Source: Candidatus Omnitrophota bacterium
GTDB taxonomy: Bacteria; Omnitrophota; Gorgyraeia; Gygaellales; Profunditerraquicolaceae
Assembly (NCBI GenBank): GCA_016208765.1
Contig: JACQXK010000001.1
Location: forward strand, 128,218 to 192,217
Length of the DNA stretch: 64,000 nt
Direction: 5' to 3'
Every line of letters begins with the position of its first letter. Positions within the stretch are counted from its first letter, which is position 1. The notes beneath the pieces were generated by a model, which saw nothing but the letters and a program-made list of their open reading frames with translations, was not told where the DNA came from and did not search any database. The position numbers and the translations under genes were made by a program. Below, one piece after another: positions 4,691-55,782 of the stretch.

Positions 4691-5296
4691 ATGAAACTTA
4701 AAACTACAAGGCTTGAGGCTTTAACTGACGGGATATTCGCGATTATTATGACTGTTCTCCTGGTTGGTTTAAGCGAGGTGTTTAGTTTAAACGGGCCGCT
4801 AACTCAATCAGATCTTTTAAAATTCTTTCTTGCGCTTAAAAATGATTTCGGAATTTATATCTTAACATTCTTAATTTTGGGTGTTTTTTGGTTTGAGCAT
4901 CACTGGCAATTTCATTTTATTAAGCATGCGGATGTTGCGTTGGTTTTTATAAATATTCTTTGGTTTATGGTAATTTGCCTGTTACCTTTTACTTCACTTC
5001 TTTTGGGCAACCACGGGCATTTATTTATTCCGGTATTTTTGTTTGAATTAAATATACTTTTGTCCAGCCTGATATTATATGCTCACTGGTTATACGCTTC
5101 AAAACATCATCGCTTGTTGGATCCGGAGGTAAATAAAGACATAGTTAGTTCTCATCGTGAAGCAGGTTTATTCCTGATAGGGATATGTGTTTTAGCTTTA
5201 ATCGTAACATTCTGGAATTCGCTTATTGGTTTATTAGTTTTAGCAATGTCGCCTTTAGTTTTTATTTTTTATCGCAAGTCAAACCACGGTTCTTGA
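4691..5296 (+). CDS. TMEM175/DUF1211-family putative K+ channel
   Basis: Six predicted TM segments. TM1 carries the hallmark motif RLEALTDGIFAIIMTVLLV, which corresponds to the RxxxFSDGxFAI signature of TMEM175 homologues. Confidence 0.65.
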   Translation: MKLKTTRLEALTDGIFAIIMTVLLVGLSEVFSLNGPLTQSDLLKFFLALKNDFGIYILTFLILGVFWFEHHWQFHFIKHADVALVFINILWFMVICLLPFTSLLLGNHGHLFIPVFLFELNILLSSLILYAHWLYASKHHRLLDPEVNKDIVSSHREAGLFLIGICVLALIVTFWNSLIGLLVLAMSPLVFIFYRKSNHGS

Positions 5297-26942: not shown

Positions 26943-26959
26943 CGATAGAAATAAGGATT

Positions 26960-27104
26960 CTGTCCTGTCTTGTTCTCGCAGCACCGTTTGCCCCGCCCCA
27001 GCGTGGCGGGGCTGCACTCGGGCGAAAACTCTTGCTCTTCCCCGACTTTTAGTCGGGGAAGAGCAAGAGTTTTCTAACGTGCTGCTCGAATCAAGACAGG
27101 ACAG
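26960..27104. repeat. 145-nt nested inverted-repeat element (long outer stem enclosing two GC-rich hairpins, the second terminator-like)
   Basis: Outer arms ctgtcctgtcttgttctcgcagcac (26960-26984) and gtgctgctcgaatcaagacaggacag (27079-27104). Inner hairpin 1 ccccgcc/ggcgggg at 26992-27011. Inner hairpin 2 is an 18-bp perfect stem ctcttgctcttccccgac/gtcggggaagagcaagag at 27029-27069 followed by TTTTCT. Confidence 0.6.
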
Positions 27105-27227
27105 TTGTTCTTATATGCCGTCTTTCTTAGTTGCGTTAGTTTAATTGCTGAGTCATTCTGAACGAGCACGGCGAGTGAAGGATCTGTGTTTGACAAAACA
27201 AACAGGAAAACTTCACGGAAAATAAAT

Positions 27228-27256
27228 TTGACAGATTCAATATCGGGTAGTATGAT
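27228..27256 (+). promoter_or_regulatory. Sigma70-type promoter for the PKD lipoprotein gene
   Basis: TTGACA (27228-27233), 17-nt spacer, TATGAT (27251-27256). The GTG start at 27293 is preceded by an AAAGGAG RBS. Confidence 0.5.
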
Positions 27257-27292
27257 TATCTAAGTTGTGTTTGGCTAAAAGGAGCTTAATCA

Positions 27293-28546
27293 GTGAAAAG
27301 ATTTGCAGCGATATTATTAGCAGTATTAACTTTATCCGGGTGCGCCACTTACAGGTTTCAAACAGGCCAGCCTCCTTATAATAAAGGTTATGTGGTTGAA
27401 AGAAGCGGCCAGCCTATTGTAGATTATACAGTAGGAAAAAACAACACTGTGCCTTCGGACCTGAAGCTTGCAGTTGAGCGTTTCTATCGTCGTAGAGATA
27501 CTGTTGAGGCTTATTATAAAAAGATGGGTGAGATGGAGGGTAGGTTTAAAGAAGTTTTCTTAAATCCTCCTATTGCCATCGTGCAATTTATCGGAGGATT
27601 CTTCCACCTGCCTTATCTTTATTATTCTAATTATAAATATGAGCATGATCCTAAATACCGCAAAGAAGTTGATAAGGAACAAAATGAACGTCTTGCTGCT
27701 GAACTGGCGCGCAAAAAAGCCGTGCGAGATGAACTCAATGCTTACATAGAGAAGGATTTGGCAAAGGAACCGGTTTTAGCTAAAGAGCCTGAAGTTGTGG
27801 AGACCAAAGTTGAAGAAGTAAAGGTTGCATTAGCCGAAGGAGAAAAAACAACTGTTGTTAAAGAGGAGATAGAAGAACCAAAGGCAAGCACAGAGGCAAA
27901 CCTTGATGTAAATGCTTCAGTGGTAACTGAAGCAAAACCTGCTGAAGTTGAAAAATCTGTAGTTGAGCCTGTTGTTGAAGAAAAAGTTACAGCAGTGCCT
28001 GTTGTCCAGGCAGAGAAAATTGTAACAGAGCCTGCTAAAGAGCCTGTTGCAGGGCCTGCGCAGGAAGAAATAATTGTAACAGAATCTACTCCGGCAGAAA
28101 AGATTACAACAGAACCTGCTTTGACAGAGAAGGCTACAGCAGAGCCAGCTATGGTAGAAAAGGTAGAAACATCTCCTCAGGTTGTTGAGAAACCAGAGCC
28201 TGTTCTTGAAGTTACAGTAAGAAAAGTTGAAGCGCCGAAGATAACCAAAGAAAAAGTAAAACCGCAGGCACAGCCTCCGGTAGCCATAATCATTGCTAAG
28301 CCTGCAAAAGGTTATTCTCCTTTGAGAGTTAAATTTTATGGGCATAAATCCCATTCCCGCGGTTCAAGAATAATCGCCTATCAGTGGGATTTTGGCGACG
28401 GCACCACCTCTAATAAAAAAGACTTCGTTAATACCTACTGGAGCGTTAGCTATGGCTCCAGAAATTTCCCCGTTACACTTACCGTTACTGATAACCGCGG
28501 CAATACCGCCACCGCAACTACGGTTATTGAAGTAAAAAGCAAATAA
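27293..28546 (+). CDS. Lipoprotein with a long E/P/V/K-rich low-complexity linker and a C-terminal PKD domain
   Basis: Lipobox LTLSGC. ~180-aa repetitive acidic/proline region (EPVVEEKV, EPAKEPV, EKPEPVLE ...). PKD signature in the C-terminal ~100 aa (LRVKFYGHKS...WDFGDGTTS...VTLTVTDNRGNTATA). Confidence 0.8.
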   Translation: MKRFAAILLAVLTLSGCATYRFQTGQPPYNKGYVVERSGQPIVDYTVGKNNTVPSDLKLAVERFYRRRDTVEAYYKKMGEMEGRFKEVFLNPPIAIVQFIGGFFHLPYLYYSNYKYEHDPKYRKEVDKEQNERLAAELARKKAVRDELNAYIEKDLAKEPVLAKEPEVVETKVEEVKVALAEGEKTTVVKEEIEEPKASTEANLDVNASVVTEAKPAEVEKSVVEPVVEEKVTAVPVVQAEKIVTEPAKEPVAGPAQEEIIVTESTPAEKITTEPALTEKATAEPAMVEKVETSPQVVEKPEPVLEVTVRKVEAPKITKEKVKPQAQPPVAIIIAKPAKGYSPLRVKFYGHKSHSRGSRIIAYQWDFGDGTTSNKKDFVNTYWSVSYGSRNFPVTLTVTDNRGNTATATTVIEVKSK

Positions 28547-30165: not shown

Positions 30166-30182
30166 TGGTGATCTTATGGTAA

Positions 30183-30248
30183 GTCATTCCCGCGTATGCG
30201 GGAATCCAGCCACGGGAACGCCTGGATGCCCGCTTTCGCGGGAATGAC
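30183..30248. repeat. GC-rich compound palindromic element in an AT-rich intergenic region
   Basis: Outer arms gtcattcccgcg/cgcgggaatgac. Internal hairpins ttcccgcg-tatg-cgggaa and cccgc-tttc-gcggg. Confidence 0.45.
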
Positions 30249-30328
30249 AATATCTACTCCCAACGCGACGATAAAATTAGGTTTAAAGTTGTGCTTAAAT
30301 AGTGTATAATTATAATAGGAGGAAGGAT

Positions 30329-30709
30329 ATGAGTAAAATAACAGTATTTACGATAATTTTGGTTTTATTTGCCGGCCTTGGATTCTGCGAGGAAATGAAG
30401 AAGAACCAGTATAACGAAGATTGGACATACCGCCAGGAAAGCGATAAGCCCAAGACCAATCCTTATTCAGGTGAATGGCAGACTGTACCCGGTGAAAAAA
30501 ACATAAAATATAATCCGTACCGGGAAGATTGGACATATGAACAGGAAGCGGATAAGCCAAGATATAATCCTTATTCAGGTGAGTGGATTGATATAAATCC
30601 TGATGAAGATATGAGGGCTCAGTCCGAATTGAAAGAAAAGAAAGAAGAAAAAGATAAGTCTACTACTGGCAACAGCTCTGGTTCTGAAACTAAAAAAAAT
30701 GAAGAATAG
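30329..30709 (+). CDS. Small secreted tandem-repeat protein
   Basis: Start placed at ATG 30329 (AGGAGGA RBS; extended -10 TGTATAAT at 30303-30310) rather than the track start at 30302. Signal peptide. Two copies of the ~35-aa repeat EDWTY.QE.DKP..NPYSGEW. K/E-rich tail. Confidence 0.6.
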   Translation: MSKITVFTIILVLFAGLGFCEEMKKNQYNEDWTYRQESDKPKTNPYSGEWQTVPGEKNIKYNPYREDWTYEQEADKPRYNPYSGEWIDINPDEDMRAQSELKEKKEEKDKSTTGNSSGSETKKNEE

Positions 30710-34744: not shown

Positions 34745-34948
34745 GTGCCACTACCAAAACAAAGACATTCCAAGGCGCGCGGGAGAAAGCGACGCACGCA
34801 TTGGAAATTAACCAAGACTAACCTCGTTTTGTGCCCTCAATGTAAGCAGCCCAGGAAACCTCATAATGTTTGCGCAGTTTGCGGATATTATGACGGCAGG
34901 CAGGTTGTAGAAATTGAAATTAAAGAAAAGAAAAAGAAAGGCCGTTAA
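34745..34948 (+). CDS. rpmF: 50S ribosomal protein L32
   Basis: Sequence MPLPKQRHSKARGRKRRTHWKL with the zinc ribbon CPQC...CAVC. GTG start. Confidence 0.9.
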   Translation: MPLPKQRHSKARGRKRRTHWKLTKTNLVLCPQCKQPRKPHNVCAVCGYYDGRQVVEIEIKEKKKKGR

Positions 34949-35013
34949 TTAGTGAGTGGTTAATTGGTGAGTGGTGAGTAGACCAATTAAGCAATTAACA
35001 AATTAACCAATTA
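34948..35013. repeat. ~55-nt intergenic repeat, copy 1 (hairpin with internal GTGAGTGGT direct repeats)
   Basis: ttagtgagtggttaattggtgagtggtgagtagaccaattaagcaattaacaaattaaccaattaa. About 90% identical over ~45 nt to the copy at 40285-40340. Contains a ggttaattgg ... ccaattaacc-type inverted repeat. Confidence 0.6.
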
Positions 35014-35019
35014 AAAAAT

Positions 35020-36009: not shown

Positions 36010-36039
36010 ATTTGTGAGTGGTAAGGAGCTTAATTAGCC

Positions 36040-38695: not shown

Positions 38696-38935
38696 ATGGC
38701 AGTGCAAGAAAAAGTTAAGTCAATTATCGCAGAGCAGTTAGGTGTTAAACCGGAAGAAGTAACCCCTGAAGCATCGTTTGTTGATGATTTAGGCGCAGAT
38801 TCTCTGGATACCGTTGAGTTGGTTATGGCTTTGGAAGAAGAGTTTGGAGTTGAAATTCCTGACGAGGATGCTGAAAAGATCACTACTGTCGGGGATGCTA
38901 TTAAGTATATTGAAGATAAGGCAACCAATAAATAA
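38696..38935 (+). CDS. acpP: Acyl carrier protein
   Basis: Phosphopantetheine-attachment motif [18 protein letters not shown]. Confidence 0.95.
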
Positions 38936-38951
38936 AATTTCTATATAAAAT

Positions 38952-39009
38952 ATTCCTTATTACCCCCGCCGACCTCCCGTTTCTTGCAAAACAAAAAACA
39001 GGGAAGAAG
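38952..39009. other. Stem-loop between acpP and fabF (possible attenuator or partial terminator)
   Basis: acccccgc ... gcgggggt arms flanking an A-rich loop. Confidence 0.3.
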
Positions 39010-39036
39010 CAGCGGGGGTAAAGTTTAATTAAGCTT

Positions 39037-40284
39037 ATGCATGAACATAGAGTAGTTGTTACAGGCTTAGGTGTAATTACTCCGGTCGGAAACGACATTT
39101 CTTCTTTTTGGAAGTCAATGGAAGAAGGTAAAAATGGCGTTGGGCCGTTGACGAGCTTTGATCCTGCCAAGTTTGATTCCCGTATCGCCGCAGAAGTAGA
39201 AGGTTTTGACCCCGCAAGTTACGGCATGTCATTTAAAGATATTAAACGTATGGATAAATTTGCGCAGTATGCCGTGGCTTCTGCGAAACAGGCAATTACT
39301 AATTCGGGAATTGATTTAGAAAAAGAAGACAGGACGCGGATTGGCGTTTTAATCGGCTCAGGTATCGGAAGTTTGCATACTATTGAGTTTGAACACAAGA
39401 ATATGCTGGATAAGGGCCCTTCAAGGATGTCGCCTTTTTTAATCCCTATGTTGATTGTAAATGCCGCAGCCGGGCAGGTTGGTATCTTTTTTGGATTAAA
39501 AGGGCCGAATTCCTGTGTTGCTACTGCTTGTGCTTCTGGTTCGCATGCGATTGGAGATGCGTTCCGGGTTATTGAGCGCGGAGATGCTGATGTAATGGTT
39601 ACCGGAGGCACTGAAAGTAGCGTTACTCCTACGGGTGTTGGCGGATTCTGTGCCTTAAAAGCATTATCTACAAGAAATGACCATCCGGAAAAAGCCAGCC
39701 GGCCATTTGACCGCGAGCGTAACGGTTTTGTTATGGCAGAGGGTTGCGGTTTGGTGATTTTGGAAAGTTTAGAGCATGCCAACAAAAGAGGGGCAAAAAT
39801 CTTAGCAGAGATTGTCGGTTATGGCATGTCTTGCGACGCATATCATATTACCGCGCCTGATCCTGGTGGCGAGGGAGCTGCGAGGGCAATGCTTTGGGCG
39901 CTTAAGGATGCTAATCTTAATCCCGAGGATGTTAATTATATCAATGCCCATGGCACCTCAACTAAATTAAATGATAAGATAGAAACCCTATCTATAAAAA
40001 AAGCCTTTGGTGCGCACGCCAAGAAAGTGATGATCTCCTCAACTAAATCTATGACCGGGCATCTCTTGGGTGCTGCAGGAGGGGTAGAGTTTGTGGTTTG
40101 CTGTTTGTCTTTAGCGCACGGAGTTATCCCGCCAACAATAAACTACGAATATCCGGATCCTGATTGCGACCTTGATTATGTGCCTAATAAGGCGCGTAAG
40201 GTAAATGTTGAGGTTTGCATGTCAAATTCATTGGGATTCGGCGGCCATAATGCCTCTCTTATTGTAAGAAAATTTATTAGTTAA
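39037..40284 (+). CDS. fabF: 3-oxoacyl-ACP synthase II
   Basis: Active-site Cys in ATACASGSHAIG. His-His motifs (HGTST, GHLLGAAG). Confidence 0.95.
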   Translation: MHEHRVVVTGLGVITPVGNDISSFWKSMEEGKNGVGPLTSFDPAKFDSRIAAEVEGFDPASYGMSFKDIKRMDKFAQYAVASAKQAITNSGIDLEKEDRTRIGVLIGSGIGSLHTIEFEHKNMLDKGPSRMSPFLIPMLIVNAAAGQVGIFFGLKGPNSCVATACASGSHAIGDAFRVIERGDADVMVTGGTESSVTPTGVGGFCALKALSTRNDHPEKASRPFDRERNGFVMAEGCGLVILESLEHANKRGAKILAEIVGYGMSCDAYHITAPDPGGEGAARAMLWALKDANLNPEDVNYINAHGTSTKLNDKIETLSIKKAFGAHAKKVMISSTKSMTGHLLGAAGGVEFVVCCLSLAHGVIPPTINYEYPDPDCDLDYVPNKARKVNVEVCMSNSLGFGGHNASLIVRKFIS

Positions 40285-40340
40285 TTAGTGAGCGGTTAAT
40301 TGCTGAGTGGTGAGTAGGCCAATTAACCAGTTAACCAACA
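40285..40340. repeat. ~55-nt intergenic repeat, copy 2
   Basis: ttagtgagcggttaattgctgagtggtgagtaggccaattaaccagttaaccaaca. Begins at the fabF stop codon, just as copy 1 begins at the rpmF stop. Confidence 0.6.
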
Positions 40341-55633: not shown

Positions 55634-55711
55634 AGAAAAAAGATATGCAAAAGACTTTAGCGGCTGTATTTTGTATTTTTCGCGGGGCATTGGTTAAATA
55701 ATCCTGACAAC

Positions 55712-55765
55712 TTGTCGGCAATGGGGTTTGCCTTTAACTGCCTTAACGGCTGATAACTCCTACTA
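55712..55765 (+). promoter_or_regulatory. Fluoride riboswitch (crcB motif)
   Basis: tcGGCaATGGgGTTtGCCtttAACtGCCttaacGGCTGATaAcTCCTAC matches the consensus GGCGAUGGnGUUCGCC...AACYGCC...CUGAUGAUYCCUAC. It sits 20 nt upstream of the crcB GTG and its AGGAGG RBS. Confidence 0.75.
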
Positions 55766-55782
55766 AAAAAAGGAGGTATTAA

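Follow-up and report, generated by a model that had tools for sequence, protein, structure and literature searches.

The locus and its two repeat copies

Does a sequence repeated at both ends of a fatty acid synthesis operon regulate that operon, or did it come there from elsewhere? The question is raised by a 64,000-nt stretch of DNA (here called the window) from an Omnitrophota MAG, in which the gene string rsmD-coaD-yceD-rpmF-[copy 1]-plsX-fabH-fabD-fabG-acpP-fabF-[copy 2]-leuC-leuD-leuB, all on the + strand, contains two nearly identical intergenic sequences. The first-pass annotation of this DNA saw in them a bracket around the fab operon, and offered a REP-like element, a shared terminator or attenuator, and the binding site of a fatty acid synthesis regulator as explanations. 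The bracket holds as far as positions go, but is positional only, the gene 3' of copy 2 being leuC. The two sequences are probably copies of an insertion element that is miniature (about 55-70 nt), modular and non-coding, and that belongs to a family widespread in uncultivated bacteria of the PVC group; they look like recent insertions rather than a switch for fatty acid genes, since uncultivated sediment bacteria carry the same repeat at dispersed places between unrelated genes.

Alignment within the window gives a direct repeat pair at 34944-35002 and 40280-40338 (59 nt, 90% identity), confirming the near-identity that had been reported for the sequences after rpmF and fabF; a 30-nt degenerate core matches copies 1 and 2 only in the window, and was matched in none of 100 dinucleotide-preserving shuffles. 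Copy 1 (34944-35014, +) fills the rpmF-plsX spacer and copy 2 (40280-40338, +) the fabF-leuC spacer, each occupying nearly all of it up to the downstream start codon (35020 and 40341, respectively). Both had been said to start exactly at stop codons, which is right in that the TAA stops of rpmF (34946-34948, +) and fabF (40282-40284, +) lie within the first TTAATTAG unit of each copy (34945-34952 and 40281-40288), but fabF ends at 40284, not at 40285. The position of the rpmF stop is identical in a relative with an empty site.

No further copies were found in the 64-kb window by blastn-short and a unit scan, which leaves 2 copies in these 64 kb of the source MAG. Two shorter recurrences that had been counted with the element do not belong to it: the 13-mer at 27141 stands by itself (blastn-short E 0.04), away from any other element unit, and the gtgagtggt 9-mer (GTGAGTGGT), whose true position is 36014-36022 rather than 36015-36023, has 8 matches against 5.7 expected, a frequency at chance level. 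It is part of the plsX-fabH spacer with its AAGGAG ribosome-binding site, and since that spacer is conserved in an element-less relative, 36014-36022 is not a copy. An independent assembly of the plsX locus, Logan contig SRR12113406_902562 (L001), ends inside the repeat (position 1, at TAATTGGTGAGTGG), a break that a multi-copy repeat would be expected to cause in an assembly graph. A crude ORF call places 68 of the window's 71 ORFs on the + strand, a bias strong enough to confound any reading of element orientation there.

Modular architecture and predicted fold

The element is modular: GTGAGTG 7-mers and GTTAATTG 8-mers are followed by a complementary arm, with a variable number of units. 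With (G)TGAGTGG or TGAGTAG named A, TTAATTGG named B, and their complements a and b, the unit order is B'-A-B-A-A then b-b-b-b in copy 1, and B'-A-B-A-A then b-b in copy 2. The G-rich left arm, in which the 8-mers and 7-mers alternate, terminates in GTGAGTAG; a short, variable loop leads to the right arm, a tandem array of the complementary 8-mer NAWTTAAC or, in a sister type, of the complementary 7-mer CYACTCA. In copy 1 the left arm and loop (34952-34981, +) are made up of GTGAGTGG (34952-34959), TTAATTGG (34960-34967), TGAGTGG (34968-34974) and TGAGTAG (34975-34981), and the right-arm array (34983-35014, +) of CCAATTAA (34983-34990), CAATTAAC (34992-34999), AAATTAAC (35000-35007) and CCAATTAA again (35007-35014). 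Both copies contain the internal repeats described earlier, one direct (GTGAGYGG ... TGAGTGG TGAGTAG) and one inverted (GGTTAATTG / CAATTAACC). As read from the sequence, each of the three reading frames meets a stop codon in GGTGAGTGGTGAGTAG, which lies in the left arm and loop of copy 1. The complementary GGTTAATTGG and CCAATTAACC units are internal and repeated, and the ends of the element have no unique definition.

As + strand RNA, the element is predicted to fold into a hairpin, with UUAAUUGG and CCAAUUAA as the paired strands of the stem and the A units as the loop. In copy 1 the predicted inner stem-loop (34960-34990, +) pairs 34960-34968 with 34982-34990 around a 13-nt loop, and a predicted outer stem pairs 34944-34950 with 35001-35007; in copy 2 the predicted stem-loop (40294-40336, +) pairs GGUUAAUUG (40294-40302) with CAGUUAACC (40328-40336) or, alternatively, with CAAUUAACC (40320-40328). 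Copy 1 has a predicted energy of -18.0 kcal/mol (z -2.9), and copy 2 one of -15.2 kcal/mol (z -1.8). A consensus stem, GGUUAAUUGG/CCAAUUAACC, recurs in an alignment of 11 compact family members, among which there are zero covarying pairs; this test is uninformative, because the sequence itself is conserved and the stems are invariant. Rfam searches gave no match over either copy, whether with a permissive limit of E 10 (33-42 kb) or at gathering level in the whole window.

Scans found no terminator-like or promoter-like sites at either copy. Copy 1 is followed by A6U, and the stems are A+U-rich. An intrinsic terminator or attenuator, one of the explanations first offered, was rejected: neither copy has a G+C-rich stem with a U-tract. 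An integron attC site was rejected as well, the genes being conserved core genes in conserved order, the box order inverted, and the units sequence-conserved repeats, as was a DNA uptake sequence, on context and density.

Other features of the window

The only gathering-level Rfam match in the window is a fluoride riboswitch (RF01734) at 55708-55769 (+), which scores 56 bits where the gathering score is 34 (E 7.5e-13). The acpP-fabF spacer (38929-39036) holds a G+C-rich hairpin, UUACCCCCGC...GCGGGGGUAA (-29 kcal/mol, z -3.7), which is unrelated to the element and has weak miRNA-like Rfam matches. Intergenic palindromes lie at 30166-30301 and 26943-27292 (GTCATTCCCGCG...CGCGGGAATGAC and a long nested inverted repeat), and similar GTCA..GCGAAAGCGGG motifs occur in the flanks of metagenome loci. 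There are also 30-nt tandem repeats (27979-28150) inside a PKD-domain ORF (27293-28546), and an 84-nt direct repeat with 108-nt spacing at 30395-30586. No tRNA genes were found in the 64-kb window.

Filled and empty sites in relatives

PlsX and LeuC of the window are identical to proteins that NCBI assigns to a Candidatus Omnitrophica MAG; an exact-protein look-up of FabF gave no record. The gene order from recG to truA is kept in other Omnitrophota. A same-genus relative (L132, GCA_020063045.1) has an identical gene order and 81-85% nucleotide identity over 20 kb. The rpmF-plsX spacer, 71 nt in the window, is 12 nt in this relative and in contigs L123 and L125 (rpmF-TAA-ccttaactaat-ATG-plsX), and the fabF-leuC spacer, 56 nt in the window, is 4 nt in L132 and L134 (fabF-TAA-ttta-ATG-leuC). 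Outgroups also lack the element at rpmF-plsX, where L126 has a 29-nt spacer and L129 has overlapping genes. A third pair comes from another Omnitrophota lineage, in which the copy nearest to copy 1 among the matches listed (L077; 96% over 51 nt) lies between a pfkB-like gene and kdsB: this spacer is 64 nt in L077 and 2 nt in L137 (TAA-ag-ATG), between flanks that are 96-99% identical. The element is thus polymorphic for presence and absence at orthologous sites, in three filled/empty pairs, and the empty sites in relatives with the same operon order mean that neither window copy is conserved.

At the rpmF-plsX junction, gain in the lineage of the window is the parsimonious reading; at fabF-leuC, deletion in the relatives may be an alternative to gain. 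In all three pairs, filled and empty sequences diverge directly after the TAA stop, this TAA being the start of a (T)TAATTRG unit. Both window copies are flanked by (G)TTAA, but TTAA is also part of the element's own units, so that a duplication would be indistinguishable from them; the L077 copy has no clear target-site duplication.

Some of the same junctions carry unrelated modular hairpins in other related Omnitrophota: fabF-leuC in L126 (15429-15548, z -3.6) and L129 (15407-15556, z -4.9), and pfkB-kdsB in L136 (about 4790-4916). These are long hairpins built of other short units (AAAAGTA-type, CTAAATCC-type, TTGTTATA-type), and several unrelated "flavors" of modular hairpin repeat seem to colonize these genomes. 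Either such junctions are permissive hot spots or a hairpin is useful there; the hairpin-free 2-12-nt spacers of the closest relatives argue for permissive hot spots. In Omnitrophota and Sedimentisphaerales, tight operon junctions have been repeatedly colonized by small modular hairpins of several unrelated sequence types.

A dispersed repeat family

How far does the repeat extend beyond this locus? A core 23-mer, GTGAGNGGTTAATTGNTGAGTGG, was found in at least 120 contigs in a scan of metagenome contigs. A stricter pattern, TGAGTGGTGAGTAGNCCAATT, proved too specific: scanned against genome contigs, it gave one match, in a MAG labeled Aegiribacteria (L002). No match to the element was found in viral contigs (scan) or in plasmids and phages (both blastn). 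The first-pass annotation had counted a lack of conservation in relatives, together with a total of only two copies, against its own proposal; conservation is indeed lacking at both sites, but copies in nature far exceed two.

Family statistics were taken over 87 non-redundant copies among the matches listed, with orthologous loci collapsed. By a crude ORF call, 69 of these 87 (about 79%) fall between genes, whereas 15% of the DNA is non-coding (p about 1e-40). Among the matches listed, the raw counts are 43 copies between co-directional, 8 between convergent and 8 between divergent genes. The G-rich strand is on the sense strand in moderate excess (30:13, p 0.014; 23:4 for tandem-only arrays; both among the matches listed). 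Neighbors are unrelated housekeeping genes, such as rplL-rpoB, nusG-rplK, rplC/rplD, rpsM, glyA, proS, ispG, argB, kdsB, pilM/N and adk. Hosts, assigned via 90%-identity protein clusters, include Omnitrophota (L045, L077 and the window) and, on the Planctomycetota side, Sedimentisphaerales, Phycisphaerae or Planctomycetota (L009, L025, L034, L039, L049, L084, L102), and the G+C content of the loci ranges from 36 to 63%. At orthologous sites the element is either there as a discrete unit of 55-70 nt or missing; it is intergenic, and occurs across numerous genomes from two phyla or more.

Members of the family come in three architectures: that of the window, [B-A]n-A, loop, [b]n; a second, [A-B]n, loop, [a]n; and a tandem-only [A-B]n that reaches 8 units. 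Orthologous loci differ in their number of units, a sign of slippage. Loops are variable and often contain a nested G+C-rich hairpin. A recognizable complementary arm is missing in 51 of the 87 members among the matches listed, so that the hairpin is not universal. The six bases 5' of the first GTGAG are most frequently TAATTG (25/87), and a stop triplet lies within 8 nt of 65 of the 87 copies, again among the matches listed. Two or more element clusters occur within 22 loci of up to 15 kb (among the matches listed). In the loops of many copies (e.g., L011, L023, L026, L050, L052, L118), the G-rich and AATTAAC arms enclose another conserved element, CGCCCTCTCCCC-N4-GGGGAGAGGG-ATGGGGTGAGGGG.

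None of four 15-mers from the core is present in searchable papers, and a literature search on Omnitrophota and repeats found nothing specific; the family appears to be undescribed. It is documented here in Omnitrophota and Sedimentisphaerales, of which few members or none have been cultured.

Regulation, RNA function or growth in place?

The position of the copies, flanking plsX-fabHDG-acpP-fabF and made of repeated units that resemble half-sites, is what suggests an operator for a FapR/FabT/FabR-like regulator of fatty acid synthesis, bracketing and co-regulating the fab genes. This now seems very improbable. The element is absent in relatives with the same operon (L123, L126, L129, L132), while in other genomes it stands beside rplL-rpoB, nusG-rplK, kdsB and pil genes; the window copies follow stop codons in a co-directional string and are not at predicted promoters; and the check for a FapR homologue that had been proposed found, at this locus, rsmD, coaD, yceD and rpmF upstream of plsX, and no fapR-type gene. 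For annotation of the window, a tempting cis-regulatory bracket around the fab operon is thereby removed as a wrong inference.

Could the hairpin serve the host as RNA instead? An intercistronic element might shield the rpmF and fabF messages from 3' exonucleases or act as a processing site, and might uncouple neighboring cistrons as REP does in E. coli, mobility being secondary. We consider this unlikely, although both copies are on the sense strand, in co-directional strings, and fold better than shuffles, and although the sense-orientation bias in the family, including that of the tandem-only arrays, might hint at a role as RNA. The unrelated hairpins at the same junctions (L126, L129, L136) would also fit, if any hairpin could be useful there, but the spacers of the closest relatives are 2-12 nt long and have no hairpin. 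There is no covariation, the stems being invariant; terminator features and Rfam matches are likewise missing; copies with the CYACTCA right arm ([a]n) between co-directional genes are antisense in 5 of 5 cases among the matches listed; nor is the sense strand the one that folds better. Because of G-U pairs, the G-rich strand always folds better, whatever the direction of the genes, so that its better folding is no evidence for selection on RNA structure. Taken with the antisense [a]n copies, this means that the orientation bias is not clear evidence for such selection either, and replication-strand effects could equally produce it, given the strand distribution of ORFs in the window.

It is also conceivable that nothing moved, slippage and template switching having expanded short native TTAA-rich spacers into arrays of 7/8-nt units and fold-back palindromes. 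Orthologous loci do vary in unit number, and arrays that are purely tandem are common; the rpmF-plsX spacer of L126, which starts with GTTAATTGAG and includes CCTTAAC, resembles a proto-site; and heptameric intergenic repeats near the upstream ORF are already known, for example in Nostoc and Xanthomonas (PMC4692102). Growth in place nevertheless appears quite improbable for sequences that share a composite 50-59-nt architecture, including the non-repetitive junction GTGAGTAG-R-CCAATTAA, at three unlinked sites with 90-96% identity. It would also have to produce the identical core 23-mer in contigs from different phyla, and the empty sites TAAtttaATG and TAAagATG offer nothing to expand from.

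A possible route of insertion

Insertion thus remains the preferred reading, and a possible course of events can be outlined. In the lineage of the window, one copy has landed directly 3' of the rpmF TAA and another directly 3' of the fabF TAA; the element would spread by insertion as a whole unit, and its unit number would then drift by slippage. Between tight cistrons, stops in three frames and a compact hairpin would keep the upstream protein from being lengthened, and the fold would bring the upstream stop and the downstream start near each other; these two properties may explain why the element is tolerated inside operons. When transcribed, it would be an intercistronic stem-loop, probably neutral for the operon or, at most, altering mRNA stability or translational coupling slightly.

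What might move such an element? One guess is a transposase of the RAYT/IS200 type that acts in trans on single-strand hairpins, another is microhomology-driven copying at TAA/TTAA. A motif search (pattern HxH...YxxxNP) found no RAYT-like ORF in the window and about 1 Mb of loci. No transposase lies between paired copies, where the genes are ordinary (pil, rnf-like, ribosomal, PEP-CTERM), and no parent autonomous IS sharing the element's ends was seen. Inspection by eye of 86 flanking ORFs gave a single mobile-element gene, an IS110-like ORF (L008).

Three kinds of gene found near copies may be recorded here. The ORF in L008 (about 395-705; FIGIDVAKDTFHVA...), resembling an IS110-family transposase, begins within about 30 nt of an element copy. 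IS110 elements are known to target repeated palindromes, and the element repeats could be landing pads for elements of this type. In L120 (887-2606) and L081 (2003-3646), a 485-aa Cas12f/TnpB-like ORF (PF07282, E 1e-15) has a core copy some 240 nt upstream of it. Finally, in five loci (L021, L056, L069, L076, L079; 5 of 125 copies) a gene whose product begins with M(N/S)EYSFEKLEVY is found at most about 400 nt away on the same strand; by motif only, these genes resemble the 23S-rRNA-IVS / four-helix-bundle (Avd-like) family.

With only three pairs, and with empty-site spacers of 2-12 nt, the seeming affinity for TAA stops may reflect either a target preference or survivorship. If the preference is real, it would suggest an unusual targeting mechanism. 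A bolder and rather doubtful version of the insertion reading is that of a transposase-less or trans-mobilized "nano-element" shared across phyla (Omnitrophota, Planctomycetota, possibly Fermentibacterota), which would home directly 3' of TAA stops, turning the stop into its first TAATTG unit, and would colonize 2-12-nt junctions in essential operons by means of its all-frame stops and a hairpin bridging stop and start. If this were true, it would be among the smallest mobile DNAs known, with a target defined at codon level.

The points that make the family noteworthy are its cross-phylum spread, its modular build of 7- and 8-nt units, and this apparent affinity for TAA stops. In practical terms, the repeats break assemblies, and they could act as strain markers. 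The filled sites are also a natural experiment on the tolerance of 60-nt inserts between translationally coupled genes.

Comparison with known repeat classes

REP, BIME and REPIN sequences are short, non-coding, mostly extragenic hairpins between co-directional genes, near the 3' end of the upstream gene; they are mosaic or modular, vary in presence between strains, and are thought to be transcribed (PMC3733652; PMC3116915). The present element is likewise short, non-coding, mostly extragenic, hairpin-forming, modular and variable in presence, and is found between co-directional genes, near where the upstream gene ends. REPs in the narrower sense are 20-40-bp stem-loops with a 6-13-bp stem and an unpaired GTAG or CGTC tag at one outer end (PMC3733652). 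Here, in contrast, GTAG (34978-34981 and 40314-40317) is inside the loop, 5' of the 3' arm, rather than outside the stem. The stem, of 8-9 bp, is in the REP range, but the loop has 13-15 nt and the unit 55-70 nt, with extra repeated units. Its stems are A+T-rich (TTAATTGG), whereas those of REPs are G+C-rich, and its arms are tandem 7/8-nt units, one arm having extra bulged units. In addition, its sequence is shared across phyla, and the motif search of about 1 Mb found no RAYT, the Y1 HUH transposase that mobilizes REPs and REPINs (REP doublets) and whose gene, in genomes with many REP copies, usually has the repeats on both sides. "REP-like element" was therefore the nearest of the three explanations first offered, in that the repeat is dispersed, intergenic, hairpin-forming and present or absent between relatives, but the strict definition of a REP does not describe it.

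The GGGAATC / GGGGAYT repeats of Xanthomonas and Nostoc are head-to-tail intergenic heptamers, nearer to the upstream ORF, variable in length and sometimes in inverted pairs (PMC4692102). The element resembles such heptamers in having 7-nt units in intergenic regions, with a length that varies between close relatives, but it alternates 7-mers with 8-mers, has a complementary arm, and is gained or lost whole, as a discrete 55-70-nt block; its sequence is unrelated and not G4-forming. The STRR sequences of the cyanobacteria Calothrix and Nostoc are also intergenic heptameric tandem repeats.

The SDRs of Nostoc punctiforme are apparently mobile hairpin repeats of 21-27 nt, reportedly restricted to a single cyanobacterial subgroup, often located in tandem heptamers, nested in one another, and without an adjacent transposase. 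Like them, the element is shorter than 100 nt, bears a hairpin and is apparently mobile with no transposase next to it; unlike them, it is larger, modular, and found in Omnitrophota and Planctomycetota. With MITEs (Correia, RUP, Nezha) it shares a non-autonomous nature, complementary ends, an A/T target (TA/TAA) and intergenic or operon-internal locations, and with BOX elements a variable number of internal units. MITEs, however, are typically longer than 100 nt, and the element has neither clear terminal inverted repeats matching a known IS nor a demonstrable target duplication, and no parent IS was seen. Although the formal definition of none of these classes fits it, the element works like REP/BIME/REPIN sequences, heptamer repeats, SDRs and MITE/BOX elements, and the best reading is that of a miniature insertion element, REPIN/MITE/SDR-like in kind, which folds into a hairpin between cistrons.
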